A DNA stretch of 64,000 nt from contig CAZCME010000013.1 in the NCBI GenBank assembly GCA_964499705.1, positions 45,217 to 109,216 of the forward strand. Reading direction: 5' to 3'. The translations under genes were made by a program, and so were the position numbers. Within the stretch, counting starts at the first letter, position 1; every line of letters starts with the position of its first letter. The notes under the pieces are model-generated. The model saw only the letters and a list, made by a program, of their open reading frames with translations. It was not told where the DNA came from and did no database searches. Below, in pieces: positions 11,032 through 35,849 of the stretch. This DNA is from an uncultured bacterium (GTDB lineage Bacteria; UBA8481).

Positions 11032-11046
11032 GTTCCGTCTTCCTCT

Positions 11047-12162
11047 CTAAATGTTGAAGAAATACTCGGGGATCGCCACGAGGTATTTCAGGTTGAATGT
11101 CCAGCGCAGGTACATCTTGATCGGAATGAGGATCGCCCACAGGAGCATCACGATGAAGGTGCTGTAGCGGATCGGCCCCAGGCCGGCGTACATCTTCTTC
11201 AGCCAGGTCTTCGCCAGGAGAGGCGGCATCACCGCGAAATATCCTCCGACGAATAGAATGCCCCACATCTCCCGCAGGAGAATGTTCTTCGGCAATCCGA
11301 TGTTCAGGCCCTTCATGTAGATGTATTCGGACAGGTTGACGTTCGTCAGCGCTTCGAGCTTATGCAGGTCCCACGCCTCGAACGGGCCGAAGAAGTTCCA
11401 GTTCGGGCCGCGGAGAAATGTCCCGATGAAGATGAGGTAGACCCAGAGGATGAGCCAGCCGAACATGAAGAGCGAGATCGCAAGGCGCCGCTGCTTGTAG
11501 CTGTAATACCCGACGCCCTTTTCATTGTTGTCGATGAAGGGAATCGCGGCGATGCCTCCGAGGACAAGCGTCGGGAGGATGACGCCGGCGATCCAGGGAT
11601 CGAAATAGACGAGAAGCTCCTGGAGACCGAGGAAGTACCACGGGGCCTTGGCCGGATTGGGCGAGAGCGTCAAGTTCGCGGGTTCCTCCACGGGTGCCGG
11701 GAGATAGATCGACCAGACGATGAGAAACGCGGTGCAGAGAATAAGGGAGATGAACTCGATGTAGACGAGGTCCGGCCAGACAAGCACTTTATCCTTCGGA
11801 TCATGGATTTCGGTCGGCTTCATCCCGCTCGCGAGCTTCGCGTCGTTCTCCACGGCCTGCTTCATCGCGAGCCAGAGGAAGAAGTATGTCAGGAATGCGA
11901 GCCCCGCGATCGGCACGTTATCGGGCTTTGTCAGAATGAGGCTGCAGTTCTCGTCGGCCAGTCCAATGAGAAAGAAGAGCGTCATCAGGGCGAAGACCGT
12001 GACCGCGCCCTTGTTGGTCCAGAGGAACGGGATCTTCAGCCGTGCGTTCCACTTCTCGAACCAGTCGTTCGGCGGAAAGACGAAGAAGAGACCGCCCGCC
12101 AGGACTGTGAATGTAATGCGCGGGTCCGAGAGGAAGTTGACGAATTCCTTGAGGTAATGCAT
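11047..12162 (-). CDS. Cytochrome b C-terminal domain protein (subunit IV-like, split cytochrome b)
   Basis: 371-aa polytopic membrane ORF containing PWYFLGLQELL, which resembles the conserved PEWY region of cytochrome b C-terminal domains; start overlaps the stop of the cytochrome b N-terminal gene by 1 nt. Confidence 0.75.
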   Translation of the reverse strand: MHYLKEFVNFLSDPRITFTVLAGGLFFVFPPNDWFEKWNARLKIPFLWTNKGAVTVFALMTLFFLIGLADENCSLILTKPDNVPIAGLAFLTYFFLWLAMKQAVENDAKLASGMKPTEIHDPKDKVLVWPDLVYIEFISLILCTAFLIVWSIYLPAPVEEPANLTLSPNPAKAPWYFLGLQELLVYFDPWIAGVILPTLVLGGIAAIPFIDNNEKGVGYYSYKQRRLAISLFMFGWLILWVYLIFIGTFLRGPNWNFFGPFEAWDLHKLEALTNVNLSEYIYMKGLNIGLPKNILLREMWGILFVGGYFAVMPPLLAKTWLKKMYAGLGPIRYSTFIVMLLWAILIPIKMYLRWTFNLKYLVAIPEYFFNI

Positions 12163-12974
12163 CAGGTCGGCCCCGATATTCCGCCGTCCTTGCGGACGCG
12201 CCAGAAGTGCACCGCCATCATGATCATGATGACAAAGGGAAGACCGATGCAGTGGAGCACATAGAACCGCAGGAGCGTCGCTTCGCCGACGAACCTACCG
12301 CCGAGAAGCGCGAACCGGACGTCGGAACCCTGGTGGACGAAGTTGATGTCACCGAGCGCCAGGAACGCCGTTCCCGGGCCCTGCGCTCCCATGAACGGTG
12401 TCGCACCGCCCATGTTGGATCCGACCGTGATGGCCCAGATCGCGAGCTGATCCCACGGCAGGAGATAACCCGTGAAGGAGAGAAGCATGGTGAGAAGGAG
12501 GAGAACGACGCCGACGACCCAGTTGAATTCGCGCGGCGGTTTGTACGAACCGGTCATGAAGACACGGAACATATGGAGCCAGACGGTGATGACCATCAGG
12601 TGAGCGCCCCAGCGGTGAATCTCGCGCATGATCCCCAGCGGCACCTGTTCGCCCAGGTCGACGATGTCACCGTAGGCGTATTCGACGGTCGGGCGGTAAT
12701 AGAACATGAGGAGAATACCGGTGATGGTGAGGACGAGGAAGATGAAGAACGTGAGTCCTCCCATGCACCAGGTGTATTTCACCTTCACGGCGTGAGTCGG
12801 GAGCTGGACGGGATGGAGGTGCAGAAAGACGTTGTTCAAAACGACCATCATCCGGTCGCGCCGCGTGGAGGGCGGGCCGCCGCCCTGGCGAAAGAGCGAC
12901 CGCCAGATTGGCGAATCGGCGATATACTTCCACACATCCGCCGGAGTGATCATCTTCTTCTGTTCGTCAGCCAT
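12162..12974 (-). CDS. Cytochrome b N-terminal domain protein (b6-like)
   Basis: 270-aa ORF with haem-ligand-bearing helices ([31 protein letters not shown]) typical of cytochrome b/b6. Confidence 0.85.
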
Positions 12975-12994
12975 CGTTTACCTTCCTGTTGTCA

Positions 12995-13897
12995 TCAGAC
13001 GCGGAGATAGGACTCGGGATTTTCCCATTCGCCCTTCTCCTGCTGAAACTTTCTCGTCTTGTCCACGAAGATCTGCCCGTCGTCCGCCATGACAATCTTG
13101 TAGCGTTCGAGCGGACGGGGGGCCGGCCCCTCGAAGTTGATGCCCGTTCTGCGAAATCCGCTGCCATGGCACGGGCACTTGAATTTTCCTTCGCCGGCCA
13201 GCCAGTTCGGCGTGCATCCCAGGTGCGTGCAGACCGTGGAGAGCGCGAACATGTTGCTGCCATCGCGGACGATCCAGACGCCGTATTTCTCCTTCCAGCG
13301 CTCGGAGACACCGGCGTCGTATTCGTCGGGGAAACCGGCTTTGAACGATTGCGGCGGCTCGAAGAGGACATTCGGGAACATGAAGCGCTGCATCATCGCG
13401 AGCGAGCCGGCGGTCGCGGCGGAGAAGGCGAACCAGCCGACGGAGAGCGCGGATATGAACGCGCGGCGGTCGACGCCTTCACCGTCGGGCATGAGGGCGG
13501 CGACGGGAGTCTTCTTCGGATCGAATTCGATGGCGTGAGCTTTCCCATAAATCTGATCGCGAGCGATGACGACCTGGCCGGGACCGATCGAAGCGGGAAG
13601 ATATTCGAGCGGCTTGGCTTCAGCAGGTTTCGCAGCAGCCGCAGGAACCGGTTTTGCAGCGGCGACAGCGGGTTTGGCAGCGCCGGCTGTCGCGGGCGTT
13701 GCTGCGGTGGTTACGGGCTTGGCGGCGGGCGAGGAGGATGCCGCCGATACGGACGCGGCTTTTTCAATGACGGGCGCGGAGCCTGCGACGGGCGAGGCCT
13801 TAGGAGCCACTTTCACTGCGGGCTTCTGGACTGAGGCGGCGGCTTCTTTTTTTTCCGGCTCCACGGAAGGAGCCGACTCTCTGTTTGATTCCGTCAT
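12995..13897 (-). CDS. Rieske [2Fe-2S] protein of the bc-type complex
   Basis: C-terminal CTHLGC...CPCHGS Rieske boxes; twin-arginine/TM anchor DRRAFISALSVGWFAF. The ~135 N-terminal residues are Ala/Pro/Lys-rich low complexity; an alternative start at Met 13492 (MPDGEGVDRRAF...) would remove it. Confidence 0.8.
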   Translation of the reverse strand: MTESNRESAPSVEPEKKEAAASVQKPAVKVAPKASPVAGSAPVIEKAASVSAASSSPAAKPVTTAATPATAGAAKPAVAAAKPVPAAAAKPAEAKPLEYLPASIGPGQVVIARDQIYGKAHAIEFDPKKTPVAALMPDGEGVDRRAFISALSVGWFAFSAATAGSLAMMQRFMFPNVLFEPPQSFKAGFPDEYDAGVSERWKEKYGVWIVRDGSNMFALSTVCTHLGCTPNWLAGEGKFKCPCHGSGFRRTGINFEGPAPRPLERYKIVMADDGQIFVDKTRKFQQEKGEWENPESYLRV

Positions 13898-19462: not shown

Positions 19463-20308
19463 TCAGCCGACCCGGCCGACGTCGTTGACGGCCTGACCGA
19501 GGAGCGTGTCATGGGTCTGGACAACCTTGGCGGAAGTCTCGTAGGCGCGCTGCGATTTGATGAGATCGATCATCTCGCGGACAAGATTGACATTGGATTG
19601 CTCGAGCATGCCGGTCCGGAGCTTGGTGCCGAAGAGAAGCTTCTGGGGAGGACCGGACTCGTCCGTGGCGCGAAAAAGGGTATACCCGACCTTTTCCAGG
19701 CCATGGACATTCTCGAAGGATACCAATCTCAGCGCGTCGGCCGTCACCGGATCCTGCCAGAGGTTGACGCCTTCTCCGGTGTAGGTCGGATTCGTGATGA
19801 TCCGACCGTCCGGTTCGAATCGGATATTGGAGGCGTCGACCTTCACGGGACCGTTTTCCCCGAGGACGAGGGCTCCAGCCTGCGTCGCGAGGTATCCTTC
19901 GGAATTGACGATGAAATTTCCGGCGCGCGTGTACATCTTGCCCTGGGGAGTCAGAACCTCGAAGAAACCATAGGATCGCGCCACGCCGGGGATGCCCTCG
20001 ATCGCCATATCGAAGAGATTCCCGGTGTTGATGGTAGCCGGAGAAACCTCGTGAGTGGTGACGATGTCGTCCACCTGGACGCCCGTTCCCACTCGTCCCA
20101 CCGGCGGAGTGAGATCGAATTCGCGCATCGGAGTCACGAGCTTTTCATCGTGCATCCTGTGGGCGAGCATGGACGGGAAATCGCGGTACACGACCGTATC
20201 CTGCTTGAAACCGACCGTGTTGCCGTTCGCGAGGTTGTTGGCGATGACTTCCATCTCCACGCCCCGCGCGATCATCGCCATCGCACCCGTATAAAGTCCT
20301 CGATCCAT
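19463..20308 (-). CDS. flgF: Flagellar basal-body rod protein (FlgF-like)
   Basis: 281-aa ORF; rod-protein N-terminal motif VIANNLANGNTVGFK and C-terminal MIDLIKSQRAYETSAKVVQTHDTLLGQAV. Confidence 0.85.
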   Translation of the reverse strand: MDRGLYTGAMAMIARGVEMEVIANNLANGNTVGFKQDTVVYRDFPSMLAHRMHDEKLVTPMREFDLTPPVGRVGTGVQVDDIVTTHEVSPATINTGNLFDMAIEGIPGVARSYGFFEVLTPQGKMYTRAGNFIVNSEGYLATQAGALVLGENGPVKVDASNIRFEPDGRIITNPTYTGEGVNLWQDPVTADALRLVSFENVHGLEKVGYTLFRATDESGPPQKLLFGTKLRTGMLEQSNVNLVREMIDLIKSQRAYETSAKVVQTHDTLLGQAVNDVGRVG

Positions 20309-20355
20309 GTTTCTCGAATATCGGGATAGATTTGATATAACATGACAAGAAAATT

Positions 20356-20961
20356 ATGACCATCCGTCCTCCCGCCTTCGAACGCCTCGTCGATGCCCTG
20401 TCGAGATTCCCCTCGATCGGCCCCAAGACTGCCGCGCGGATCGCGCTCTGGCTTTTGAACCAGCCGCCGGAAGCCAGCGAGCGGATCGCGCGGGCCATCA
20501 CGGAAGCGCGGCAGACAATCAGAAGATGCAGGATCTGTTTCCAGTACGCGGAGGACGAGCTGTGTCCGGTCTGCGCCGATCCGGCGCGGGACAAATCCAT
20601 TCTTTGCGTCGTGGAGGAAGCCGTGGACGTCTGGAGCTTTGAGCGGACCGGGCGATATCGAGGAACCTACCATGTCCTCGGCGGCGCGATTTCTCCATTG
20701 GACGGAATCGGTCCCGACGAGCTGACAGTCCAGGCTCTCTTGGAACGAGTCGCGGATCCCGCGCAGGGAATAGCGGAAGTCATTCTCGCGACCGATCCCG
20801 ACACGGAGGGCAACGCCACCGCGCTCTTCATCGCAGACCACCTGCCGCGGAGCCGCGTCAAGGTAAGCCGACTCGCGCACGGGCTGCCCGTGGGCGGCGA
20901 ACTAGCCTATTCCGACGATGCGACTCTGGCGGAAGCTCTGGCGGGTCGACGGATTTTATGA
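20356..20961 (+). CDS. recR: Recombination protein RecR
   Basis: 201-aa ORF with C4 zinc finger (CRICFQYAEDELCPVC) and Toprim-like region (LCVVEEAVDVWSFERTGRYRGTYHVLGG); divergent from flgF. Confidence 0.9.
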   Translation: MTIRPPAFERLVDALSRFPSIGPKTAARIALWLLNQPPEASERIARAITEARQTIRRCRICFQYAEDELCPVCADPARDKSILCVVEEAVDVWSFERTGRYRGTYHVLGGAISPLDGIGPDELTVQALLERVADPAQGIAEVILATDPDTEGNATALFIADHLPRSRVKVSRLAHGLPVGGELAYSDDATLAEALAGRRIL

Positions 20962-21142
20962 ATCGACACCGGAAGCGAAACTGGCGGACGCAAGGGCCTG
21001 CGCACTTCTCCCTGGGCCTCTGCACCGAGTGGGCTCGATCTCTTTCGTCCGCAATTTTCATGAGACGAGGAGACACGCGTCTTGTGCGCCGGTTTCACCT
21101 CATATAGGATCGATTCTCGTTCAGCAGGGAGGAAAAAGTAGA

Positions 21143-23584
21143 ATGAGAAACAACGCTTCATGTTCGACGTTCCGAATTCGATATTTATTTCTGTCAGGTT
21201 ACTTACTCGCCCTATTCGCAGCGAGTGATACATCCGCCGCCGCGCTGATCTTTCCGGATTCGCCAGGACCGGTTGCCGACAAGGTATTCGGGCAGCCGGG
21301 TTTCATAACCAACACCGCCGGAACATCTCTCGATCAGATGTCTGGCCCTTCTGATATTCTTTTCGACTCCGTCGGTCGGATGTACATTGCGGACCTGAAC
21401 AACGACCGTATTCTAATCTTCGCAAACCAAGACGATACAAGGGCCGATTTTGTGATAGGCGGGCCAATCAGTGGCGCGTTGCCAGGTCTTACCGGGGTTC
21501 CTTCTGGCGCGGGGGCCGATAGGCTGAATGCTCCAACGTTTCTCGCTCTCTTTGACGGCCCGGACACCTCCGTGTTGTTTGTATCCGAACAGTTGAACCA
21601 GAGGGTTCTCGGTTACATCTTAAGGCAACCTGGGTTTTCATTTCTCAGCGACACGCTGGCAGACTATGTCTTTGGGCAACCCACGTTTGATACAAACGTT
21701 ATTTCCAACAATGGCACAGGGGCCTCGTTACTTTCTGCCGTTGGACTTCGGAATCCGGCCGGACTTTCAATCCTGGATACTGGAGCTTCCACGATTTCGC
21801 TTTTCGTTGCGGATAGAACCAACTTGCGTGTTCTCCGGTATGACATCAATAAATCCCTTTTTGGTCTCCCCAATAGCAGCATGGATACAATTCCGGATGA
21901 GTTGTGGGGACAACCCGATTTTATGACTTCCGAACTAACTTTTGCCGTTTCGCGAGAAATCATTAGAGGGCCGCTCGGTGTAGCTTCAACGCCGGACAGG
22001 TTATTCATTGCCGCGGTACAGCCGAGGGTCGTAGTCGAATCTCTCACCGATCCCGACACTTCTTTTGACGGAGTTTATGGTCAGCCCGATTTTACATCTC
22101 AGACTGCCGGAAATGACACCACCTCGCTCGCTTCGCTTTTCTTATCGGTGGCGATAGGTCCAACAAAAAATGTATTAGCGATCATAGACAGGCAAAATCA
22201 TCGTATTCTACTGCACACCGATACTTCAGGCGCAGATATCATTCCCGATGATATTATCGGCGATACGAACTTCGTGGCACCCGTTCTTACCGGACCAAGC
22301 GCACAGTCGCTGCGTCTCCCAACCGCAGCTTATTTCCGATCCGACTCTGAAGTTTGGGTCACCGATTTCGGCAATAATCGCGCCCTGAGATTTGACCGCG
22401 GCTCCAACAACACGCCTGTTGGAAATAATGTGAACGTGACGGAATCGTTTGCAGTCCAAGGATTCCTGGTTACTGTGAAATTCGCATCAGTTTCGCAGGC
22501 GGGCAACACCGAGATCAGGTTACTCGACTCGATCCCACCGCTCGGAACAGATTTCCGCCTGACGAGCGATTCACTCTGTCCATCTTCCGATAATATGATC
22601 TTCCAGATCGGAACGACTGCGATCTTCACAACGGCTCAAGTGACGATCAATTTCAATGATAATGCCTGCCTGAAAAGCCTTTCGGTTCCCAATAAACTGA
22701 GCCTTGAGATGTTGCATTTTGACCTAATCCCGCCAGACCCGGACACCGTGACGTTCGGTAATGCTAATCCGGGAACAAATGAGATCAAAAGCATCGATCT
22801 CACCACGCTTTCGCCCTTTGTCGTCGCGGAGAAGATCTTTCGCGATCTCACACCGCCGACTATCACAATCGAAATCGAGAGCGGACATGTTTTTCATAAC
22901 TACGACGAGCCGGTTTTCAAGCCCAAGTCATTTGTGACGCTCAGCGCGACGGACAGCTCCGGAGTTTCCACGTTTGAGTGGCGGATCGATGATGGCGAAT
23001 TCCAAAGCTACTCCGAACCGTTCCAGATTGGCGAGAGCGTCGCGCGATCGAAGGGGGCGAATCCGAAGTCTGAAACGCACGTTCTGACAGCGCGAGCAAG
23101 CGACGTCTTCGGTAATACAGAGGAAACGCATCTCATATTCCGACTTGCGTCAAACGGACAACCGCGCGTTGATCGCAGCGTGCAGAACCTCACTATCCAA
23201 AGGGGAACTCTTCACATTTTCTCGATGCTCGAAAGCATTCAATTCGACCTCGGAGAGGAGATCGTTCTCACCATTGTATATGAGAATTCGCAGGATGTTT
23301 ACCGGCCTAACAATCCAAACCCGACGCCCGATGGAGGACAAACGATCGTCAGCATTTTAGATTCCCTTGGTCGCGAAGTCCATTCGCAAAGACGACACCC
23401 CGATCCTGATCCCGCGAAAGTCACGATCGGTATGGGCGAGAAATTAACCTACTCCTATTCCGTCATTTCGAAGATGTTTCCAAATGGTCTGCCTGCGGGT
23501 CGATACACCCTTGTGATTCAGTTCCGCGGCGAGTTTGCCGGACATCATGCATTCGAGGTAATGGACGATGACAGCGTCAAATAA
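21143..23584 (+). CDS. Secreted NHL-repeat beta-propeller protein with C-terminal beta-rich extension
   Basis: ORF 20918..23584 trimmed to Met 21143 (GGGAGG Shine-Dalgarno 10 nt upstream; signal peptide MRNNASCSTFRIRYLFLSGYLLALFAASDTSAAA). Repeated GQPGF/GQPTF/GQPDF and (A/S)DxxNxR(I/V)L motifs; gene is visibly lower in GC than its flanks. Confidence 0.75.
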   Translation: MRNNASCSTFRIRYLFLSGYLLALFAASDTSAAALIFPDSPGPVADKVFGQPGFITNTAGTSLDQMSGPSDILFDSVGRMYIADLNNDRILIFANQDDTRADFVIGGPISGALPGLTGVPSGAGADRLNAPTFLALFDGPDTSVLFVSEQLNQRVLGYILRQPGFSFLSDTLADYVFGQPTFDTNVISNNGTGASLLSAVGLRNPAGLSILDTGASTISLFVADRTNLRVLRYDINKSLFGLPNSSMDTIPDELWGQPDFMTSELTFAVSREIIRGPLGVASTPDRLFIAAVQPRVVVESLTDPDTSFDGVYGQPDFTSQTAGNDTTSLASLFLSVAIGPTKNVLAIIDRQNHRILLHTDTSGADIIPDDIIGDTNFVAPVLTGPSAQSLRLPTAAYFRSDSEVWVTDFGNNRALRFDRGSNNTPVGNNVNVTESFAVQGFLVTVKFASVSQAGNTEIRLLDSIPPLGTDFRLTSDSLCPSSDNMIFQIGTTAIFTTAQVTINFNDNACLKSLSVPNKLSLEMLHFDLIPPDPDTVTFGNANPGTNEIKSIDLTTLSPFVVAEKIFRDLTPPTITIEIESGHVFHNYDEPVFKPKSFVTLSATDSSGVSTFEWRIDDGEFQSYSEPFQIGESVARSKGANPKSETHVLTARASDVFGNTEETHLIFRLASNGQPRVDRSVQNLTIQRGTLHIFSMLESIQFDLGEEIVLTIVYENSQDVYRPNNPNPTPDGGQTIVSILDSLGREVHSQRRHPDPDPAKVTIGMGEKLTYSYSVISKMFPNGLPAGRYTLVIQFRGEFAGHHAFEVMDDDSVK

Positions 23585-23729
23585 TGGCAGTGAAACTTCT
23601 TACATAACAATTGCGGACCAGATAGATCCTGTATTATACTGGTTTCGGATAAAGGGCATCAGTCGTTACTGACCCTTATCCTTGTTCCAGGATTCCATTG
23701 ACTGTGAACAATATTGCATCGGAGCTGAA

Positions 23730-24788
23730 ATGAAGCGCGTCGAACCCGCCTTGGTCAACGTGAAATTCGCGAAATTCCCGACGCCAACTGCTGCCGTTCT
23801 TGAGCTGACGAACAGATGCAACGAACAATGCATTCACTGCATTCGCGAATCACCCGATCTACGATTCGACGACGAACTTGCGACCGCCGAATGGCTGAAG
23901 GTCGTTGATGATCTTGCGGACATCCGTACTTTTTCCGTATGTCTGACGGGTGGAGAGTGCACGATCCACCCCGGGTTCCTGGAAATCATCGACCGATGCC
24001 GAAGCCATCGCATTAATGTGTCGATAAAGACAAATGCACTTTCGTTGGCGCGAATCGCGCCGATGCTAGCGCGCAAGGGAGTCGGATTCATTGAAATCTC
24101 GCTGTACGGCGCGACACCGGAATCGCACGATCGGTGCACCCGGATTTCCGGTTCATTCCAGCGTCTCGTCGAGGGTGTCAAGGCGGCGAGAAAAAACGGT
24201 ATTCCAGTCTCCATGAACGCGATTGTCTTTCGATGGAATGCTCATGAGGCTCTTGCGATGCGCCGGCTTGGCCAGGAACTGGATTGCCCGATCAAACGCG
24301 ACTTCATGCTCTCGACCACCGATCTTGGCAGGCACCTCGATCTGGAATTGGTGACGTCTGCCCAGATTCGAGAAATCGAGTCGATCTGGCCCATGAACAC
24401 GCTGCCGGGCGCGCAGAACCGTCTTTCCCGGGTAAAAATCTGTACTCAGGGCATGAACACAGTCTGCGTAACCGCGCGTGGCGAAGTACTTTCATGCGTC
24501 ACGATCCGCAAGCCGCTCGGCAACGTCAGAAAAAATGGCCTCGCCGATACCTGGCTCACCACGACGGGAGGTCACAGCGGTGCAGCCCGGCGAGCGCATG
24601 ACGTGGACTACGGGAATTTCACTCGCTGCGAAGCGTGCAAGCATCTTCCGGTCTGCAGCGTCTGCCTGGGACAAAACTTCGCCGCCACCGGCAGCTTTTA
24701 CGAACCTCCCCTTGAAAGATGCTTTATTACCATGTCATTATTCGGTAACAAGGAAGGGATGGAAAATGGAAAGGAAGTCCATGCGTAA
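23730..24788 (+). CDS. Radical SAM enzyme with C-terminal SPASM/twitch-like cysteine cluster (putative peptide maturase)
   Basis: ORF 23682..24788 (TTG) trimmed to ATG 23730 with GGAG upstream. CNEQCIHC (Cx3Cx2C) radical SAM cluster near the N-terminus; C-terminal CEACKHLPVCSVC auxiliary-cluster motif. Confidence 0.8.
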   Translation: MKRVEPALVNVKFAKFPTPTAAVLELTNRCNEQCIHCIRESPDLRFDDELATAEWLKVVDDLADIRTFSVCLTGGECTIHPGFLEIIDRCRSHRINVSIKTNALSLARIAPMLARKGVGFIEISLYGATPESHDRCTRISGSFQRLVEGVKAARKNGIPVSMNAIVFRWNAHEALAMRRLGQELDCPIKRDFMLSTTDLGRHLDLELVTSAQIREIESIWPMNTLPGAQNRLSRVKICTQGMNTVCVTARGEVLSCVTIRKPLGNVRKNGLADTWLTTTGGHSGAARRAHDVDYGNFTRCEACKHLPVCSVCLGQNFAATGSFYEPPLERCFITMSLFGNKEGMENGKEVHA

Positions 24789-24996
24789 GTTATATGAAAA
24801 GCCGGAGCTGATCTGCTACAGCGGAATCAAGGTCGGAGTCTATTCCGTCTCCAACTCCAACGCCAATTGTCAGGCGGATTGCGCCGCCACTGTCTGTTCA
24901 TTTGTCGCGACAGCGTCGGCGGCTCCATGCGACACCTGCGATAACGACAATTCCCAGTGCGCTACCGGCCTGAATCCCGTGGTGGACTGCCTCTAA
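24766..24996 (+). CDS. Cys-rich small peptide, candidate RiPP precursor (76 aa, 8 Cys)
   Basis: ATG 24766 preceded by AAGGAAGGG about 8 nt upstream; overlaps the last 23 nt of the radical SAM gene in another frame. Sequence MERKSMRKLYEKPELICYSGIKVGVYSVSNSNANCQADCAATVCSFVATASAAPCDTCDNDNSQCATGLNPVVDCL. Confidence 0.5.
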   Translation: MERKSMRKLYEKPELICYSGIKVGVYSVSNSNANCQADCAATVCSFVATASAAPCDTCDNDNSQCATGLNPVVDCL

Positions 24997-25045
24997 TCCG
25001 GCGCGCTTTCTTGCGCCTTCCCCACGCCTCCGATAACATCCTCGA

Positions 25046-25705
25046 ATGCCCTACTACGTCAGCATCGGTGGACAGAATTACGGACCGGCCGAGCCGGACG
25101 AGCTCCAGAAATGGCACAAGGCGGGTTCCTTCAATCCCACTGACTTCGTATGGAATGAAGACGCCAACGAGTGGACCGAGGCGGCCCGGTTCGCGCCGCT
25201 GGCGCACCACTTCGATACGGCGGCGGCACCGGCCGTGGGCATCGAGGAGATCGACGAGCTTCCGCGCGAACAGAGCGCGCTTCAGCCGGCCGCGGGTCCC
25301 GAAACCGAAAGCTGGTGCGCGAACCATGAGACGAACAGAGCGACGGCGGTCTGCCCCCATTGCCGGAAATCCTTCTGCGCCCAATGCATGGTCTCGACGG
25401 GAGGAATCTCCGTCTGCATCGACTGCGTCAGCTCCGAAAAGGGCTCCGCGACTAAAAGTCCGAAGCGCACGGTCCTTCTGATCGGCGCCGTCATCGTCCT
25501 CATCGGCATCGCCGTCGGATCCTATCTCTTCTTCGCTCCGAAGCCCATCGAGCAGCCGGCCACGCCGGAGCTGATCGAACTGAAGCGAGGAGATGCGCCG
25601 GCCTCTCTGGCGGCGCCGGACAAGGCCGCCCCTCCCGCTGAAACTCCGGACACATCCGATTCGTCGGCCGGAGCCGTTGCTCCTTCAGATACTTCCACAC
25701 CATGA
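25046..25705 (+). CDS. DUF4339-like N-terminal domain / zinc-finger / single-pass membrane protein
   Basis: N-terminus MPYYVSIGGQNYGPAEPDELQKWHKAGSFNPTDFVWNEDANEWTEA; Cys/His cluster CANHETNRATAVCPHCRKSFCAQCMV...CIDC; TM helix VLLIGAVIVLIGIAVGSYLFF; Pro/Ala-rich C-terminus. Stop overlaps the glnD start (ATGA). Confidence 0.6.
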   Translation: MPYYVSIGGQNYGPAEPDELQKWHKAGSFNPTDFVWNEDANEWTEAARFAPLAHHFDTAAAPAVGIEEIDELPREQSALQPAAGPETESWCANHETNRATAVCPHCRKSFCAQCMVSTGGISVCIDCVSSEKGSATKSPKRTVLLIGAVIVLIGIAVGSYLFFAPKPIEQPATPELIELKRGDAPASLAAPDKAAPPAETPDTSDSSAGAVAPSDTSTP

Positions 25706-28020
25706 AAGGTTTCATCGCGCCGCTCATTCCTCCAAGCGAGCCCGAGGAGCTGGCACTCTGGGGCTCCAATCTCACGAAAGCTCTCACCGACCTGACGGAG
25801 AAGCTGACCTCGCCGGCCTTTGCCGAGCTCGATCCCGCGCGCGTCAGCGCATACGCCGTCGGCGGATACGGGCGCCGCGAGCTCGTTCCCTTCTCGGACG
25901 TCGACATTCTCTTCGTCGTGAAAAAGGACAAGGAAGTCGACCTCTCGAAGTCGATCTCCTTCCTATGGAGCCTGGGACTGAAACCGAGCGTCCTCATCCG
26001 GAATCTCGACAACCTGAAGGCCGCGGTCGCTGACGATCTGCTCTTCGCAACGACTCTCATCGACGCGCGGCACCTTTTCGGTTTCGAAGCGGAGCTCCTG
26101 TCCGGCCCGAAGACGTGGATCCGGTCGATCCGTCCGAAATTCGCGGAGGAGCACGAGAAGGAGAGAATGATCCGGCACCTGAAATATCTCGGCGCGGGCC
26201 ATCAGGAGCCCAACGTCCGGGATGGTCGCGGAGGCCTGCGCGATCTCCAGGATCGCCGGTGGATCGGCGCCATGGACAACTGGGAGAAACGCGACGAGGC
26301 GCTCTCCCCGGGGCAATGGGAGGATTACCGCAGGCTCCTCGCCGCCCGCGCGATCATCCACTGCGCGCTGGAGAAGCGCGAGGACCGGCTGCTGCTGGAA
26401 GAACAACAGACGATCAACGACTGGCTCGGATGGCCCATCGGAAAAAATTTCGCGAAGGAAACGCTCAGCACGATGAAACGCGTCGTCCGATCCTTCGATC
26501 CGGCGCCGCCCGACCCCGAATCCCGCGTCACCATCACGGAATTTCTGAACCGCATCGGAGCCGCAGACGAGAAGCCGCCGGCGACTTACCTGCGAAGGTG
26601 CGACGAAACAGGCGACCTGGGCCGACTCATCCCGGAATGGACGCGCATCGAATGCCTCACGAGGAACGATCCGATCCACCTCTTCACGCCCGAGGAACAT
26701 ACGCTCCGGGCCGTGGAACACCTGGATGCGATGCTCGCCGAAGGCCGCTTCCCGATCGACATCGCCGCCCTGAAGCGCCGCGATCTCCTGACGCTCGCGC
26801 TCCTCTTCCACGACATCGGCAAGGGATCCGGCAGGGACCACGAGGTGCGCGGACGGGAAATCGCGGAGGAGACGATGGAACGATGGGGTTATCCGCCGGG
26901 CGACATCGCGCTCGTCGCGTTCCTCGTGAACGAGCATCTGCTTCTCTCGTCGAACGCGTTCATGCGGGACGTTCACGATCCGAGCCTCATCCATGATGTC
27001 GCGAAGCGGATCGGCGACATCGAAAAGCTGACGATGCTCTATCTCCTAACGGTCGCCGACATCCGTGCCGTCAACGTGGAGTCGTTTTCGGAATGGAAAG
27101 CGAACCTCCTCAATACTCTGACGCGCCGCCTGTACCGCCAATGCCAGGCTTACCTCCCGACCGCCAAGCTCGCGGCGGACATACTCCGGCGTCGTCACGA
27201 GGCCGTGCTGCGACTCCCAGGGATGGGAGGAGTGTCGCGGGAGTCCACGGAGGGACGGAGCGACCCGCTCATGGCCAGCGATGCTCTCGACATGGACATC
27301 GAACGGCACTTCGCCAACATCGACGCGCGGTACGCCCTTGCTCATTCGCCCGAGCAGATCGCCAGCCACATCAAGCTGATCCCGAGATTGACGGCCGAGA
27401 AGACGGTGATCGAGCACCACTCCCATCCGGAAATGGGCTACACGGAAGTCCTGGTCATCACTCAGACCCATCACGGCCTCTTCGCCGAGATCGCCGGCAC
27501 CCTGTCCGCGAAGGGCTTCAATATTCTCGAAGCGGACATTTCCACCCGGACCGACGGCATCGCGATCGACTCCTTCAAGGTGAGCGACACATTCGATCCG
27601 GACCGCTGGAAATCCTTCGACCGTGACCTGATGCGCCTTCTTTCTAAGGAGATTTCGGCGGCGGCGCTGATCGCGGAACGCATGCCCTACGCCCGCCGGA
27701 ACGACCGCAAGGGGTCAGCGGCCGGCCGCAAGAAAACCGCGATCCTCATCGATAACCAGAGTTCCAAGACAAACACCGTCGTCGAGGTGATGGCGCCGGA
27801 CGAGATGGGCATTCTATACAGAATCGCCAAGACATTTCGTGATTGCGAGATAGGCATCAATTCGGCTATCGTATCGACAACATCGGATCAGGTAGTCGAC
27901 GTCTTCTACGTCACCACCCGGTCCGGAGAGAAGATCACGGACAAGACGGGCATGGAACGAATGGAATACCTGTTGCGCCAGATTATTTCGACCGAGAATT
28001 CAGGAGCCGCCATAGCATGA
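25702..28020 (+). CDS. glnD: [Protein-PII] uridylyltransferase/uridylyl-removing enzyme
   Basis: 772-aa ORF with nucleotidyltransferase motif (AVGGYGRRELVPFSDVDILFV), HD domain (LLFHDIGKG) and C-terminal ACT-like repeats. Confidence 0.85.
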   Translation: MKGFIAPLIPPSEPEELALWGSNLTKALTDLTEKLTSPAFAELDPARVSAYAVGGYGRRELVPFSDVDILFVVKKDKEVDLSKSISFLWSLGLKPSVLIRNLDNLKAAVADDLLFATTLIDARHLFGFEAELLSGPKTWIRSIRPKFAEEHEKERMIRHLKYLGAGHQEPNVRDGRGGLRDLQDRRWIGAMDNWEKRDEALSPGQWEDYRRLLAARAIIHCALEKREDRLLLEEQQTINDWLGWPIGKNFAKETLSTMKRVVRSFDPAPPDPESRVTITEFLNRIGAADEKPPATYLRRCDETGDLGRLIPEWTRIECLTRNDPIHLFTPEEHTLRAVEHLDAMLAEGRFPIDIAALKRRDLLTLALLFHDIGKGSGRDHEVRGREIAEETMERWGYPPGDIALVAFLVNEHLLLSSNAFMRDVHDPSLIHDVAKRIGDIEKLTMLYLLTVADIRAVNVESFSEWKANLLNTLTRRLYRQCQAYLPTAKLAADILRRRHEAVLRLPGMGGVSRESTEGRSDPLMASDALDMDIERHFANIDARYALAHSPEQIASHIKLIPRLTAEKTVIEHHSHPEMGYTEVLVITQTHHGLFAEIAGTLSAKGFNILEADISTRTDGIAIDSFKVSDTFDPDRWKSFDRDLMRLLSKEISAAALIAERMPYARRNDRKGSAAGRKKTAILIDNQSSKTNTVVEVMAPDEMGILYRIAKTFRDCEIGINSAIVSTTSDQVVDVFYVTTRSGEKITDKTGMERMEYLLRQIISTENSGAAIA

Positions 28021-32649: not shown

Positions 32650-32719
32650 CGAATGAACAACGACTGATGAACAATTCCTGATTGTTCATCAGTCGTTGTT
32701 CATTCGTCATTTGTCATTG
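32637..32719. terminator. Perfect 39-bp inverted repeat with 5-nt loop; candidate bidirectional terminator
   Basis: Arms 32637..32675 and 32681..32719 are exact reverse complements (loop TCCTG). The arms contain the last codons and stops of convergent ruvX and asnB, so both proteins end in NDK. Confidence 0.5.
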
Positions 32720-34617
32720 GAACCCTGGTCCGCAAACTGACGGTGCCATAGCTCCAGCATCAGAAGCGCCCAGAGACGGAAGGCATTATTGCGGCGACCG
32801 GCCTTGTGGTCATCAATGAGGCGTTCGATGACTTCGCGCTTGAAGTAGCCGCGCGCGAGGGAACCCGAGTCCAGGAGGATCTCGCGAATATATCCGTGCA
32901 GCTCGCCCTGGAACCAATGCGAAAGCGGAACGCTGAAGCCCATCTTTCTTCGATAGAGAATCTCATACGGCAATATTCCGTGATGCGCTTCCTTCAAAAT
33001 TTTCTTCGACGAGAACGCTCCGACTTTCCACGTCCGCGGCAGGGAAGCGGCGAACTCCATGATCGACGTGTCGAGGAGAGGCGATCGGGTTTCGAGCGAG
33101 ACGGCCATGGAGGCGACATCGACCTTCACGAGAAGCGTATCCGGCAGGTACATGAGCGTATCGGAACGGAGAACGCGGTCGACGAGATCGGCCTTGCGGG
33201 GATTGTCCCAGCCGTCGGTCATGAGACGGAGGAGATAATCGTCGGCGGAGTGGTTGCCGAGCCGGGCGCGAAATTCGTCGGAGTACATCTGTTGCCGCGC
33301 CTCGGCGTCGAAGTATGCGAAGATGCTGAGATTGAACTTGTCCGGAGTGCATTGCGAGGCTCGCGCGAAGCGGCGGATCTTCCTCGCGAGCGATCGGTTT
33401 TGCACTCCCTCGGGAAGCCATGACGTCGCTTTTTCCGTGAGCGAGCGTATGCCGGAGGTCGTGAGGCTGGAATAAAGCCCGTGCATGAGGAGCGCGCGGT
33501 AGCGCTCGTAGCCACCGAAGTATTCGTCTCCCCCGTCGCCGTTCAACGCCACCGTGACGCGCTGGCGCGTCATGCGGCTGACGTAGTAGGTCGGCAGGGC
33601 GGACGAGTCGGCGTAGGGCTGGTCGTAGTGCCAGACGAGCTTCGGCAGGATCTCCATGGCGTCCGGTTCGACGATGAATTCCTCGTGCTGCGTGCCAAAC
33701 TTCTCCGCGACCATCCGGGCATACTGGGTCTCGTTGAAATCCCTGTTCGGAAATCCGATGGAAAACGTTTTGACCGGCGCGGAGGATACTTCCGCCATGG
33801 CGGAAACCACCGCCGAGGAATCGACGCCTCCGGAAAGAAACGCGCCGAGCGGAACGTCGGATATGAGCCGGGCTTTTGTGGCGTCGACGATCAATTCGCG
33901 TAGCCTGATTTTCGCGTCGTCGTACGAGAGATCGGTCTTCCGGACCCAATCCGCCTGCCAGTAGGTTTCGATCTTTGCGCTTTCGCCTGTCCAGACGAGT
34001 CGCGAAGCGGGAGGCAGGCGATGCACGCCATTGAAGATGGTTTTCGTTCCCGGAATCGACTGATATGTAAGATACAGATCGATCGACTCCGGATCGATTT
34101 CGCGCGGGCAGTTCGGAAGCGTCAGGAGCGCCTTGATCTCCGACGCGAAGTAGATCCCCTCGGCGTCCTCGAACCAGTACACCGGTTTTTTGCCCGCGCG
34201 ATCGCGCGCGATGAGGAGCGAGCGATCCCGCGTGTTCCAGATCGCGAACGCGAACATGCCCCTCAGTTTTTCCGGAACGCGCGCGCCGAGTTCCTCATAG
34301 AGATGAACGATCGCCTCCGTGTCGGAATGCGTCCGAAATCGATGACCCCTGGATTCCAGATCCGGCCGCAGCTCGAGAAAGTTGTATACCTCCCCGTTGA
34401 ACGTGATCCAGACCGATTCGTCCTCGTTGGACAAGGGTTGCCTGCCGCCCTCGAGATCGATGATGGAGAGCCGGCGATGTCCAAGCCCACAGCCTTCCAG
34501 CGCGACGTGCCCTTCCCCGTCGGGACCGCGATGGACCAGCGTATCGGTCATACGTTTGAGAACGGAAACGTCGGGCTTGCGCCCATCTCGATAAACAATT
34601 CCAGCTATGCCGCACAT
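32707..34617 (-). CDS. asnB: Asparagine synthase (glutamine-hydrolysing)
   Basis: ORF 32707..34647 trimmed to Met 34617 so the protein begins MCGIAGIV (catalytic Cys2); PP-loop SGGVDSS; the upstream 10 codons of the track ORF are encoded by a repeat copy. Confidence 0.85.
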   Translation of the reverse strand: MCGIAGIVYRDGRKPDVSVLKRMTDTLVHRGPDGEGHVALEGCGLGHRRLSIIDLEGGRQPLSNEDESVWITFNGEVYNFLELRPDLESRGHRFRTHSDTEAIVHLYEELGARVPEKLRGMFAFAIWNTRDRSLLIARDRAGKKPVYWFEDAEGIYFASEIKALLTLPNCPREIDPESIDLYLTYQSIPGTKTIFNGVHRLPPASRLVWTGESAKIETYWQADWVRKTDLSYDDAKIRLRELIVDATKARLISDVPLGAFLSGGVDSSAVVSAMAEVSSAPVKTFSIGFPNRDFNETQYARMVAEKFGTQHEEFIVEPDAMEILPKLVWHYDQPYADSSALPTYYVSRMTRQRVTVALNGDGGDEYFGGYERYRALLMHGLYSSLTTSGIRSLTEKATSWLPEGVQNRSLARKIRRFARASQCTPDKFNLSIFAYFDAEARQQMYSDEFRARLGNHSADDYLLRLMTDGWDNPRKADLVDRVLRSDTLMYLPDTLLVKVDVASMAVSLETRSPLLDTSIMEFAASLPRTWKVGAFSSKKILKEAHHGILPYEILYRRKMGFSVPLSHWFQGELHGYIREILLDSGSLARGYFKREVIERLIDDHKAGRRNNAFRLWALLMLELWHRQFADQGSNDK

Positions 34618-34629
34618 GGGGGAAGAATA

Positions 34630-34657
34630 GGGGACATTCTCCAACATTCCAACATTG
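34630..34657 (-). repeat. 28-bp REP-like repeat, copy 3
   Basis: Exact GGGGACATTCTCCAACATTCCAACATTG; on the minus strand it ends 12 nt upstream of the asnB ATG. Confidence 0.8.
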
Positions 34658-34826: not shown

Positions 34827-35849
34827 CTAAACGACTAACTCCTGCTGCGTCAATGTTGGAATGTTGGAGAATGTCCCCCTGATTGCTTCGGCAAGGGCTC
34901 CTTTGCGCCTGTCTTTTCGCATGCGAGAAACGATCATCGAATAATAACCATTCGGGTGGCGATCGCCGTCCTCATGCTGGATACGGTCGTAGGTCCAGCG
35001 GGCCAGCTCATGCGCAATGTAGATCGTGAGTTCGCGGTGCATCGCCTCGATCGACGACCATGCCTGGCGGCGCATTTCGGATGTGGCCATGACGAACCGG
35101 TCGGCCATCTGCTGAAGATCGCTCCAGGACCACGACACGGCGTCGCGGTCCATCGTGCGTCGCTTTCTGGTTTCTTCGAACCGCTGACGGCGTTCCGTCT
35201 GGAGTTCGATACGCTTTCGAAATAGATGCGAGCTCATGAAACGGCCGTTATGGCCCTCGCGAAACAGTGTTTCGTTGGATTCTGCGTTGAGTTCATTGAA
35301 CCATCTGTCCAATACGCCCAACTGTTTAACATGATCGAAGGAGGAGATGTTCTTTCCGAAGAGTTGCTCGGCGAGCAGATGCCGGTCGACGCGATTTCTC
35401 TGGGTTCCCATGCCCAGCATTTCCCGCGCACTGCACCAAGGATAAAGAAGCGGATCGCGTACGAAACCGGCACGGACTGGATTGAGGATGATGTAGGCGA
35501 CGACGGTTTCAAAGTAGGACTCCGTCTCGATGACGAGCGACTTCGATCTGCCCTGGAAGAGGTGGCCGGTCCGGTCGTGGCGTCGGTTGAGTTCCTGAGA
35601 GGCGCGCGTCAAAAATCGCCGCAGGAATTCCGAAATGTCGCCGCCGGGCGTTCGAAGGCAGAAATGAAAATGATTCGGCATGAGACAATAGGCATACGTG
35701 ACGACGCGAAACATCTTTGCCGACTCGAAATAGAGATCGAGAAATCGACGGTAATCGGACTCGTGCTGGAAGAACGGGTGCTTGTCGACGAAGCGATTGA
35801 GGACGTGGTAGACGGCGTCCTTGTAGGCGATGCGTGGACCTCTGGACAT
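34827..35849 (-). CDS. IS200-like Y1 (HUH) transposase, REP-associated tyrosine transposase (RAYT)-like
   Basis: 340-aa ORF; HUH motif CLMPNHFHFCL and tyrosine motif VAYIILNPVRAGFV align by eye with the PEHMHCIW and YIYINPVK regions of E. coli RayT; N-terminal AVYHVLNR. C-terminal codons read through a repeat copy. Confidence 0.75.
   Translation of the reverse strand: MSRGPRIAYKDAVYHVLNRFVDKHPFFQHESDYRRFLDLYFESAKMFRVVTYAYCLMPNHFHFCLRTPGGDISEFLRRFLTRASQELNRRHDRTGHLFQGRSKSLVIETESYFETVVAYIILNPVRAGFVRDPLLYPWCSAREMLGMGTQRNRVDRHLLAEQLFGKNISSFDHVKQLGVLDRWFNELNAESNETLFREGHNGRFMSSHLFRKRIELQTERRQRFEETRKRRTMDRDAVSWSWSDLQQMADRFVMATSEMRRQAWSSIEAMHRELTIYIAHELARWTYDRIQHEDGDRHPNGYYSMIVSRMRKDRRKGALAEAIRGTFSNIPTLTQQELVV
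34851..34878 (+). repeat. 28-bp REP-like repeat, copy 4
   Basis: Exact CAATGTTGGAATGTTGGAGAATGTCCCC; inverted partner of copy 3 with a 193-bp spacer; lies inside the last ~17 codons of the transposase ORF. Confidence 0.8.

Follow-up and report, generated by a model that had tools for sequence, protein, structure and literature searches.

Radical S-adenosylmethionine (SAM) enzymes with a SPASM domain are a main source of new peptide cross-linking chemistry. In the ranthipeptides, including SCIFF/thermocellin (CteA/CteB) and freyrasin (PapA/PapB), a SPASM maturase modifies a Cys-rich ribosomal peptide. The bond made by CteB is between a Cys and the gamma-carbon of a Thr located four residues from it. 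SCIFF peptides are found lineage-wide, look vertically inherited, and usually have no dedicated protease or exporter. The sactipeptide maturases SkfB, AlbA and StsB carry an N-terminal recognition element (RRE, the leader-binding domain of many pathways for peptides made by ribosomes and modified after translation, RiPPs) of ~100 amino acids. PqqE and MftC are short SPASM enzymes without an RRE that have a small peptide gene in the operon. In CX3D motifs, PapB joins Cys to the Asp beta-carbon, and spacings of CXnD with n = 0-6 are tolerated too (PMC9413430). Here we describe a pair of overlapping genes, one for a radical SAM/SPASM enzyme and one for a Cys-rich peptide, in a 64,000-nucleotide stretch of contig CAZCME010000013.1 from an uncultured bacterium (the window). 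The pair is probably an uncharacterized two-gene RiPP module that makes and cross-links a ribosomal peptide.

The features of the pair, all on the forward strand, are as follows.

23730..24788, +, radical SAM/SPASM enzyme gene, predicted peptide maturase (open reading frame, Pfam, homologues)

23817..23840, +, codons of the C30-x3-C34-x2-C37 motif (CNEQCIHC) for the SAM-cleaving [4Fe-4S] cluster (sequence)

24441..24722, +, SPASM region, residues 238-331, C238 / G251-x4-C256 / C300-x2-C303-x5-C309-x2-C312 / C331 (Pfam, alignment A4)

24750..24777, +, putative purine-rich Shine-Dalgarno-like sequences (sequence)

24781..24788, +, overlap of peptide start and enzyme stop, 8 nt, ATGCGTAA (sequence)

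24781..24996, +, precursor peptide gene, 71 amino acids, NCBI MEK8023246.1 'hypothetical protein' (alignments A1, A2 and A5; substitution counts)

24793..24810, +, leader motif Y5-E-K-P8-E-L10 (YxxPxL), invariant in 20/20 family members (alignment A5)

24844..24993, +, predicted modified region, residues 22-71, with predicted boundary and modified residues (alignments A2 and A5)

We found that the enzyme and the peptide occur together. With the enzyme as query, 5.8 billion proteins yielded 13 orthologue clusters at 47-75% identity, followed by a sharp drop to <=31%. DNA around ten orthologue clusters and from two GTDB genomes provided ten distinct loci (L001-L003, L005-L009, L012 and L014; L004 duplicates L003, and L013 duplicates L009). 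A homologous peptide of 70-91 amino acids was encoded directly after the enzyme in 10/10 of these loci, among which the enzymes are 46-75% identical. The peptide gene overlapped the enzyme stop by 4-17 nt in eight of the ten (4 nt in L005, L006 and L009; 8 nt in L001, L008 and L012; 14 nt in L003; 17 nt in L007). The peptide start in L002 is ambiguous (overlap of 20 or 50 nt), and in L014 the two genes are separated by a 2-nt gap. Further peptide matches share contig sizes with further enzyme matches. An initial sequence-only reading of the window had called a downstream, overlapping precursor atypical. This is true of the usual architecture; within the family, overlapping or abutting genes are the rule (10/10 loci).

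Two tandem paralogous radical SAM genes precede the peptide in L002 (4946-7065) and in L003/L004 (L003 1424-3414). Absence of the conserved 22-residue N-terminal extension from the upstream paralogues in L002 and L003 would have hinted at a part in leader binding. We rejected this, because ahead of their called starts the reading frame continues with the same N-x-x-F-x-R-x-PTP motif, and the short N-termini are artefacts of start-codon choice.

The small open reading frame (ORF) is in a frame other than that of the enzyme and ends with TAA at 24994-24996. It has two candidate starts. The ATG at 24766, 23 nt before the end of the enzyme stop codon, would give 76 amino acids and has the Shine-Dalgarno-like sequence AAGGAAGGGA (24750-24759) 6 nt upstream. 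The in-frame ATG at 24781, with AGGAAG (24772-24777) 3 nt upstream, gives a 71-amino-acid product (MRKLYEKPEL...) and is the NCBI gene call. In homologues, the Met is four residues before the invariant Tyr (MRKQY, MTRPY, MLKVY), or three in a few (MKLYKKP). Based on this position and the NCBI call we prefer 24781, which is most likely the start. The 76-amino-acid ORF first reported for this locus, and a Shine-Dalgarno-like sequence before it, do exist, and it is only the start codon that the homologues move. The overlap of the peptide start with the enzyme stop makes translational coupling of the two likely.

The peptide gene is under purifying selection. We calculated the proportions of non-synonymous (pN) and synonymous (pS) differences from pairwise Nei-Gojobori counts. 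Values of pN were 0.19-0.50 and those of pS 0.42-0.89 (mostly saturated), and pN was well below pS in 36/36 pairs. The amino-acid sequence is kept from the window, with 60% GC, to the AT-rich locus L012. Independent gene callers (NCBI, JGI, ENA, Logan) predicted the peptide, and the gene is present in L008 though uncalled by the original annotators. A conserved small-peptide gene that co-occurs with the enzyme is one mark of a RiPP system, and we found one, under purifying selection, in all ten distinct loci. The check on conservation of the pair that the sequence-only reading had proposed thus supports its candidate.

We searched for more members of the peptide family. A profile made from eight peptides recovered 16 members, and an exhaustive HMMER search with the resulting 16-sequence profile gave 9 matches at E <= 0.001 among 1.84 billion cluster representatives. 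The peptide matched no Pfam or NCBIfam family (NCBIfam, 0 families at E <= 1). In a 20-sequence alignment (A5), Y5, P8, L10, Y13, G19, S22, C30, C34, C39 and C53 are invariant. N25, A28, D33 and C60 are nearly so; D33 is replaced by Asn in two members. Members contain 7-8 Cys, spread with conservation over ~50 residues.

There are two subfamilies. C50, D54, T44 and D69-C70 are kept within subfamily A, the type found in the window, whose pattern is ...C-Q-A/V-D-C-A-A-x-x-C-x-L/F-V-A-T-(4-5)-P-C-D-x-C-D-...-C-G-x-G-L-x-P-x-x-D-C. Subfamily B (P0058 and P0066-P0068) is common to A up to C39 (SPSNxxAxC-[SL]-C-D-C-A) and divergent after it. The peptide of the window ends in ...VVDCL.

The N-terminal part of the peptide looks like a leader. 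Its invariant Y-x-x-P-x-L has the spacing of the lasso-type leader motif, [Y/W]xxPx[L/V/I/F/A], that is bound by discrete lasso-type RREs (PMC13381572). The predicted leader, described earlier as charged, is thus not merely charged. As read from the sequence, the N-terminus is without a signal-peptide-like hydrophobic stretch. We considered a disulfide-rich mini-protein that folds by itself, but AlphaFold2 gave the peptide no confident autonomous fold (predicted local distance difference test score, pLDDT, 41), which is as expected of a precursor and, with a shallow alignment, is weak evidence.

The enzyme gene runs from ATG at 23730 (MKRVEP...) to TAA at 24786-24788 and encodes 352 amino acids. 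This start agrees with the MKRVEP/MNR N-termini of homologues and with the NCBI call, and NCBI MEK8023245.1 ('radical SAM protein', Candidatus Hydrogenedentota bacterium) is the exact 352-amino-acid protein. Pfam Radical_SAM (PF04055) matched with 78.6 bits (gathering score 29.5; E = 8e-22), and SPASM (PF13186) matched residues 238-303 with 23.4 bits (threshold 21.5; E = 7e-5). C30, C34 and C37 are invariant in both the 16 homologues of alignment A3 and the 14 of alignment A4. The C-terminal part contains the C300-x2-C303-x5-C309-x2-C312 block, CEACKHLPVCSVC. Both this motif and the CNEQCIHC motif had been picked out from the letters alone. Both are present, and their Cys are invariant in homologues, with one qualification: in alignment A3, C312 is only nearly invariant.

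We found that the predicted SPASM domain is complete. Beyond the radical SAM triad, exactly seven Cys (C238, C256, C300, C303, C309, C312 and C331) are invariant across the 14 orthologues of alignment A4, and these seven match the seven-Cys SPASM signature (C...Gx4C...CX2CX5CX2-3C...C). This full signature points to two auxiliary [4Fe-4S] clusters. Of the SPASM/twitch architecture proposed at first, the SPASM part is borne out by the seven invariant Cys and by Pfam; the domain, as predicted, is not a twitch domain. The AlphaFold2 model (pLDDT 81, predicted template modelling score 0.82) has the standard partial TIM barrel and SPASM fold. In both the Pfam match and the model, the radical SAM core starts at ~residue 24 with no domain before it, which leaves no room for a fused RRE.

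We compared the enzyme with described families. Among the best 25 of 63 NCBIfam matches, to which all scores given here belong, none reached its curated cut-off. The scores, in bits against the cut-off, were 105.9/400 for ScmE, 105/500 for AhbD, 98/500 for NirJ2, 92.4/265 for MftC, 83.9/381 for PqqE, 74/625 for StsB, 66/300 for SkfB, 57/850 for AlbA and 57/400 for ScmF; AhbC scored 94 bits. MftC gave the only near full-length alignment among these matches (residues 19-331 against profile positions 11-331), and the AhbD/NirJ-type matches were mostly limited to the radical SAM core (residues about 24-216). When a 16-homologue profile was compared with the sequences of solved structures (PDB), SkfB (E = 1.6e-34) and PqqE (1.8e-30) ranked first, and CteB scored 1.4e-11. 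The two closest solved relatives by sequence profile are thus peptide-modifying, which speaks for the RiPP reading. A Foldseek search with the enzyme model was led by PqqE, BlsE and SkfB, then MoaA and the anaerobic sulfatase-maturating enzyme (anSME), at template modelling (TM) scores of ~0.6; since matches of differing chemistry have similar scores, structure cannot discriminate the chemistry of the enzyme.

We also considered whether the enzyme is an anSME and rejected this identity. The match of the anSME structure to the 16-homologue profile is partial and weak (E = 3.7e-8, residues 30-129 only), anSME is not among the NCBIfam matches listed, and there is no sulfatase in the window. By profile comparison, with all scores far below cut-off, the enzyme is in no clade with a known non-peptide substrate. 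The candidate uncharacterized RiPP module of the sequence-only reading therefore stands, as the profile search put the enzyme in neither an anSME clade nor one with a non-peptide substrate.

The pair is restricted, as far as can be seen, almost wholly to the uncultured phylum Hydrogenedentota. The enzyme was found in 2 of 100,044 GTDB species (one genome each), both metagenome-assembled genomes of Candidatus Hydrogenedentes/Hydrogenedentota, and Hydrogenedentota is likewise the source given in the named NCBI records of the window and P0066. This range is taken from GTDB genomes and named NCBI records; L003/L004, L007 and L014 are without assigned taxonomy. Six loci (the window, L001 in part, L002, L005, L006 and L008/L012) have the gene order flgF/flgG, recR, radical SAM gene, peptide gene, GYF-domain gene, glnD and metallo-beta-lactamase-fold gene. 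This synteny in a housekeeping region suggests vertical inheritance of the pair. The neighbours differ in L003/L004, L007, L009 and L014, so that the constant unit is only the enzyme (or enzymes) and the peptide.

Relatives of the enzyme are found with accessory genes. In L010 (3633-6957), and also in L011, a ScmC/HprK-like gene, a PqqD gene and a radical SAM/SPASM gene (P0016, 30% identical to the window enzyme) are followed by three tandem peptides. The PqqD protein matches the lasso_PqqD model with 54 bits. The peptides of L010 (76-83 amino acids) begin with leaders of the Y-x-R-P-x-[IV] type, share a conserved EQTSLACNAT block and end in VVLS. P0017 (27% identity, L015) has ScmC and PqqD genes upstream, and in L003/L004 an HprK/ScmC-like gene is divergent from the two radical SAM genes. 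The RiPP-like L010 cassette ties the wider clade of the enzyme to peptide modification that depends on a leader, and this is clearly what that clade does. In both subfamily B loci, L009 (2591-3349) and L014 (2285-4710; peptides P0066 and P0068), a gene for a DrrA-like ATP-binding cassette (ABC) ATPase directly follows the peptide. In L014, the ATPase is followed by a 557-amino-acid PF16949 membrane protein, and the radical SAM gene has a gene for a class I methyltransferase upstream of it. From these gene orders, some members appear to export their product. The subfamily of the window is reduced to two genes.

We looked for accessory genes in the window by comparing 34 ORFs with Pfam and 10 with NCBIfam, and by tblastn with the PqqD protein of L010 and an ScmC protein of a related locus. 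These scans found no RRE/PqqD (PF05402), peptidase, ABC exporter or HprK-like kinase in the 64 kb. In tblastn for a hidden RRE, for ScmC, or for another copy of the peptide or the enzyme in the window, nothing was below E = 0.8. The gene tables of L001-L008 contained no PqqD. The earlier statement that no protease or exporter is adjacent thus holds for the whole window, with the ABC transporters of L009 and L014 confined to two divergent members.

Several points weigh against a RiPP module. The pair is known here from its genes alone, with translation and modification of the peptide predicted. There is no RRE/PqqD, leader protease or exporter in the 64 kb or in ~6 kb around the syntenic loci, so that recognition and, with no protease nearby, removal of the leader lack an explanation. 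The best full-length profile is MftC, and the tetrapyrrole enzymes AhbD and NirJ are among the top partial scores; given this placement, sequence alone cannot fix the chemistry of the enzyme. The Cys may form disulfides or bind metal, and the enzyme may make a carbon-carbon cross-link or carry out epimerization. Finally, the conserved housekeeping neighbourhood, which looks vertically inherited, is unusual for an antibiotic-type gene cluster.

Against this background we grade the parts of the RiPP reading separately. It is likely that the enzyme modifies the 71-amino-acid peptide. Given that it does, thioether formation is the slightly better guess as to the chemistry. We infer the enzyme-substrate relation, the point where leader gives way to core, the thioether chemistry and pairing, and whether the product is exported or acts inside the cell.

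We propose the following mechanism. The start/stop overlap would couple translation of the peptide to that of the enzyme. The leader of the peptide (~residues 1-21, with YxxPxL, Tyr13 and Gly19) would dock it on the enzyme directly or on an RRE from another part of the genome. Both PqqE and MftC, the closest full-length relatives of the enzyme, rely on trans-acting chaperones. The SAM-cleaving [4Fe-4S] cluster would generate a 5'-deoxyadenosyl radical, which would take a hydrogen atom from an acceptor in the Cys/Ser/Asn/Asp/Thr-rich part (~residues 22-71). The acceptor would then be joined to a Cys sulfur held at an auxiliary cluster, most likely giving intramolecular thioether bridges. With seven rather than eight SPASM Cys, one auxiliary-cluster iron may be open for a substrate thiolate, as in CteB, which binds its substrate Cys in this arrangement. 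Likely donors are Cys30, Cys34, Cys39 and the later Cys, and likely acceptors are nearby conserved polar residues. By conservation, the candidate pairs would be C30-x2-D33, C39-x4-T44 and C50-x3-D54, which are ranthipeptide-like. Since PapB tolerates CXnD, thioethers are plausible at the conserved C-x2-D and C-x3-D spacings.

A bolder version of the RiPP reading is that an RRE-less enzyme reads YxxPxL directly and installs an undescribed cross-link pattern on ~50 residues with 7-8 Cys, giving a physiological rather than antibiotic product that is near-specific to the phylum and vertically inherited. We regard this as doubtful. The physiological role would then be in signalling or in metal or redox handling, possibly tied to GYF/glnD nitrogen sensing.

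The peptide could instead be a cross-linked intracellular subunit, structural or metal-binding, with no secreted product, as with QhpC and QhpD. QhpC, which is modified by QhpD in quinohaemoprotein amine dehydrogenase, has Cys-Asp/Glu thioethers, and the conserved Cys-Asp pairs of our peptide resemble these. The core-gene synteny, the absence of a protease or exporter from subfamily A loci, and the presence of the gene across several Hydrogenedentota lineages are all consistent with such a subunit. However, no dehydrogenase or structural gene is a constant partner, as the neighbours differ in L003, L007, L009 and L014, and ABC transporters follow the peptide in L009 and L014. Together with an RRE-type leader motif typical of precursors and the lack of a fold in AlphaFold2, these findings make a subunit unlikely.

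We also think it quite unlikely that the peptide is the source of a cofactor or small molecule like PQQ (pyrroloquinoline quinone) or mycofactocin, with one or two residues modified and the rest discarded. In PqqA and MftA, which are short, conservation is limited to the residues that react, in contrast to a peptide of 70-90 amino acids with 7-8 Cys that is conserved along ~50 residues. Its C-terminus is ...DCL or ...GDC, with no Val-Tyr or Glu...Tyr motif, and two members have ABC transporters. MftC did give the only near full-length NCBIfam alignment and PqqE was the top structural match, and the enzyme, like both, has no fused RRE. The vertically inherited housekeeping context and the lack of an exporter in the window would also suit a cofactor. 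Nevertheless, the MftC and PqqE scores (92/265 and 84/381) are far below cut-off, and there is no PqqD/MftB-type chaperone or pathway gene nearby.

A third alternative is that the enzyme acts on a non-peptide substrate, such as a tetrapyrrole (AhbD, NirJ) or a sugar (BlsE), and that the small ORF is merely a co-operonic Cys-rich protein. AhbD (105 bits), NirJ2 (98) and AhbC (94) were among the top NCBIfam matches, and BlsE was the second-best structural match. These NCBIfam scores are far below cut-off and mostly cover the radical SAM core only, and no haem or sugar pathway genes are nearby. Furthermore, the peptide gene is at the enzyme stop in 10/10 loci representing four genomic contexts, which is hard to explain without a functional link. 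We consider a non-peptide substrate very unlikely.

That the small ORF is an unexpressed chance frame, as might be supposed because high GC content yields many spurious ORFs (dozens in the region) and the peptide matches no known family, is effectively refuted: its 20 homologues have 10 invariant positions, pN is below pS in every pair, it is kept in AT-rich L012 despite the shift in GC content, its position at the enzyme stop is conserved, and independent callers agree on it.

The window is otherwise housekeeping (tilS, hpt, a cytochrome bc-type cluster, flagellar rod genes, recR, glnD, alaS, ruvX, asnB, pheT and zapA), and there were no Rfam matches at E <= 1 in 20000-26000. A GYF-domain gene (25046-25705, +) follows the peptide here and in all syntenic Hydrogenedentota loci. 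Its product combines a GYF_2 domain with a B-box-like zinc ribbon and a transmembrane segment, and the gene overlaps the glnD start by 4 nt. We found no terminator-like site between the peptide stop and the GYF gene, so a single operon may run from the radical SAM gene through the peptide and GYF genes to glnD. Proline-rich peptides are the ligands of GYF domains; that the GYF protein is linked to the KPEL of the leader is pure speculation.

Upstream, recR and the radical SAM gene are separated by an 888-amino-acid ORF (20918-23584, +) that encodes an NHL repeat and a beta-barrel domain of the OmpL47 type. It overlaps the end of recR, and its true start is therefore probably downstream of 20918. 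An ORF of this type is at this place only in the window; in the other syntenic loci recR is directly followed by the radical SAM gene. L002 has an 808-amino-acid homologue downstream of the peptide on the opposite strand. The region 21000-25000, with the NHL/OmpL47-like, radical SAM and peptide genes, has a G+C content of 0.50-0.56 against about 0.62 on the flanks. Third-position G+C is 0.55 in the NHL gene and 0.62 in the radical SAM gene, compared with 0.75-0.84 in neighbours. Either an old horizontal origin or low codon adaptation could account for this.

We considered a link to lasso peptides through the asparagine synthase homologue at 32707-34647 (-). It scored 487 against a cut-off of 267 for TIGR01536 and 265 against 525 for the lasso cyclase; its best match, to the XrtA/PEP-CTERM amidotransferase model, scored 617 against 817. 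We rejected the link, as the protein is either a true asparagine synthase or an XrtA-type amidotransferase and not a lasso cyclase. Next to it, a 340-amino-acid ORF (34827-35849, -) may be a domesticated or REP-associated (repetitive extragenic palindrome) transposase: its first 120 residues contain a Y1 transposase domain of the IS200-like type (PF01797, E = 2.4e-9). Elsewhere in the window are two unusual domain fusions, an 803-amino-acid protein with cNMP-binding, ParA-like ATPase and patatin phospholipase domains (55522-57933, +) and a 449-amino-acid protein with ATP-cone and uridine-kinase-like domains (849-2198, +), and a group of genes (8164-13897, -) whose products are a multihaem cytochrome c of 955 amino acids, a b-type cytochrome membrane protein, cytochrome b and a Rieske protein.

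Our literature searches (Hydrogenedentota with radical SAM, RiPP or ranthipeptide; SynChlorMet) found nothing on the enzyme-peptide family. Public records name the genes only 'radical SAM protein' and 'hypothetical protein', and the family is one of many uncharacterized radical SAM RiPP families. To our knowledge, no member of the candidate phylum Hydrogenedentota has been cultured, and hardly any natural products are known from it. The pair may be the Hydrogenedentota equivalent of SCIFF in clostridia, peptides with a physiological role that is still poorly understood. It is a compact two-gene system that is tractable in E. coli, and it would test whether a YxxPxL leader is readable without a PqqD-like domain. 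If the chemistry consists of ordinary Cys-Asp/Thr thioethers, the pair adds one more ranthipeptide family, which would be useful and unsurprising. Genome mining has worked mostly through a fused or adjacent RRE, as for the compendium of roughly 15,000 proteins in PMC10288494, and profiling of catalytic-site proximity (PMC10288494) could in principle separate sactipeptide- from ranthipeptide-forming enzymes. With an RRE-type leader and no RRE in its neighbourhood, the family described here would escape RRE-based mining.

Among known systems, the ranthipeptides offer the closest comparison. The spacing of the candidate Cys-x4-Thr pair resembles the link carried by CteA, and the enzyme-peptide pair is like SCIFF in its lineage-wide, apparently vertical inheritance and in usually having no dedicated protease or exporter. 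More generally, its Cys-x(2-4)-Asp/Thr spacings resemble the CX3D motifs of PapA (PMC9413430). Unlike in ranthipeptide systems, CteB matches at only E = 1.4e-11, there is no N-terminal RRE, the precursor is downstream and overlapping, and the leader has YxxPxL. Nor did the peptide match SCIFF (TIGR03973) or any ranthipeptide-type NCBIfam model, and the SCIFF maturase model (TIGR03974) is not among the best 25 of 63 matches of the enzyme, all of which are below cut-off. Of the sactipeptide maturases, SkfB is the best profile match with a solved structure, and the enzyme matched the models of SkfB, AlbA and StsB. However, these matches begin at ~residue 100 of the three, after the RRE that the enzyme is without, and the peptide does not have the sactipeptide hairpin layout of N-terminal Cys and C-terminal acceptors. 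The enzyme also differs from those in the RRE-associated radical SAM dataset (PMC10288494) in that no fused or neighbouring RRE was found in the window ORFs, the gene tables of L001-L008 or by tblastn.

ScmE of SynChlorMet (ScmC/D/E/F, TIGR04248-04251) is the top NCBIfam match of the enzyme, and L003/L004, L010 and L015 have ScmC-like genes. The ScmE score is below cut-off, and the window has no ScmC, ScmD (PqqD) or second radical SAM gene. The PqqE/PqqA and MftC/MftA systems share with the pair a short RRE-less SPASM enzyme and a small peptide gene in the operon. The pair is distinguished from the PQQ system by its PqqE score (83.9/381), the lack of pqq genes and a peptide that matches no family, and from mycofactocin by its MftC score (92.4/265), the lack of a PqqD-family gene and a peptide that ends in ...VVDCL rather than Val-Tyr. 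It shares the leader motif with lasso peptides, whose RRE (B1), B2 protease, lasso cyclase and HprK kinase are absent from the window. By these sequence comparisons, the pair fails every specific family test run, yet behaves like a sactipeptide/ranthipeptide or SCIFF-type system. What sets it apart from the usual architecture is a downstream, overlapping precursor, an RRE-type leader with no fused or nearby RRE, synteny with the core genome, and, as far as can be seen, restriction to one uncultured phylum.

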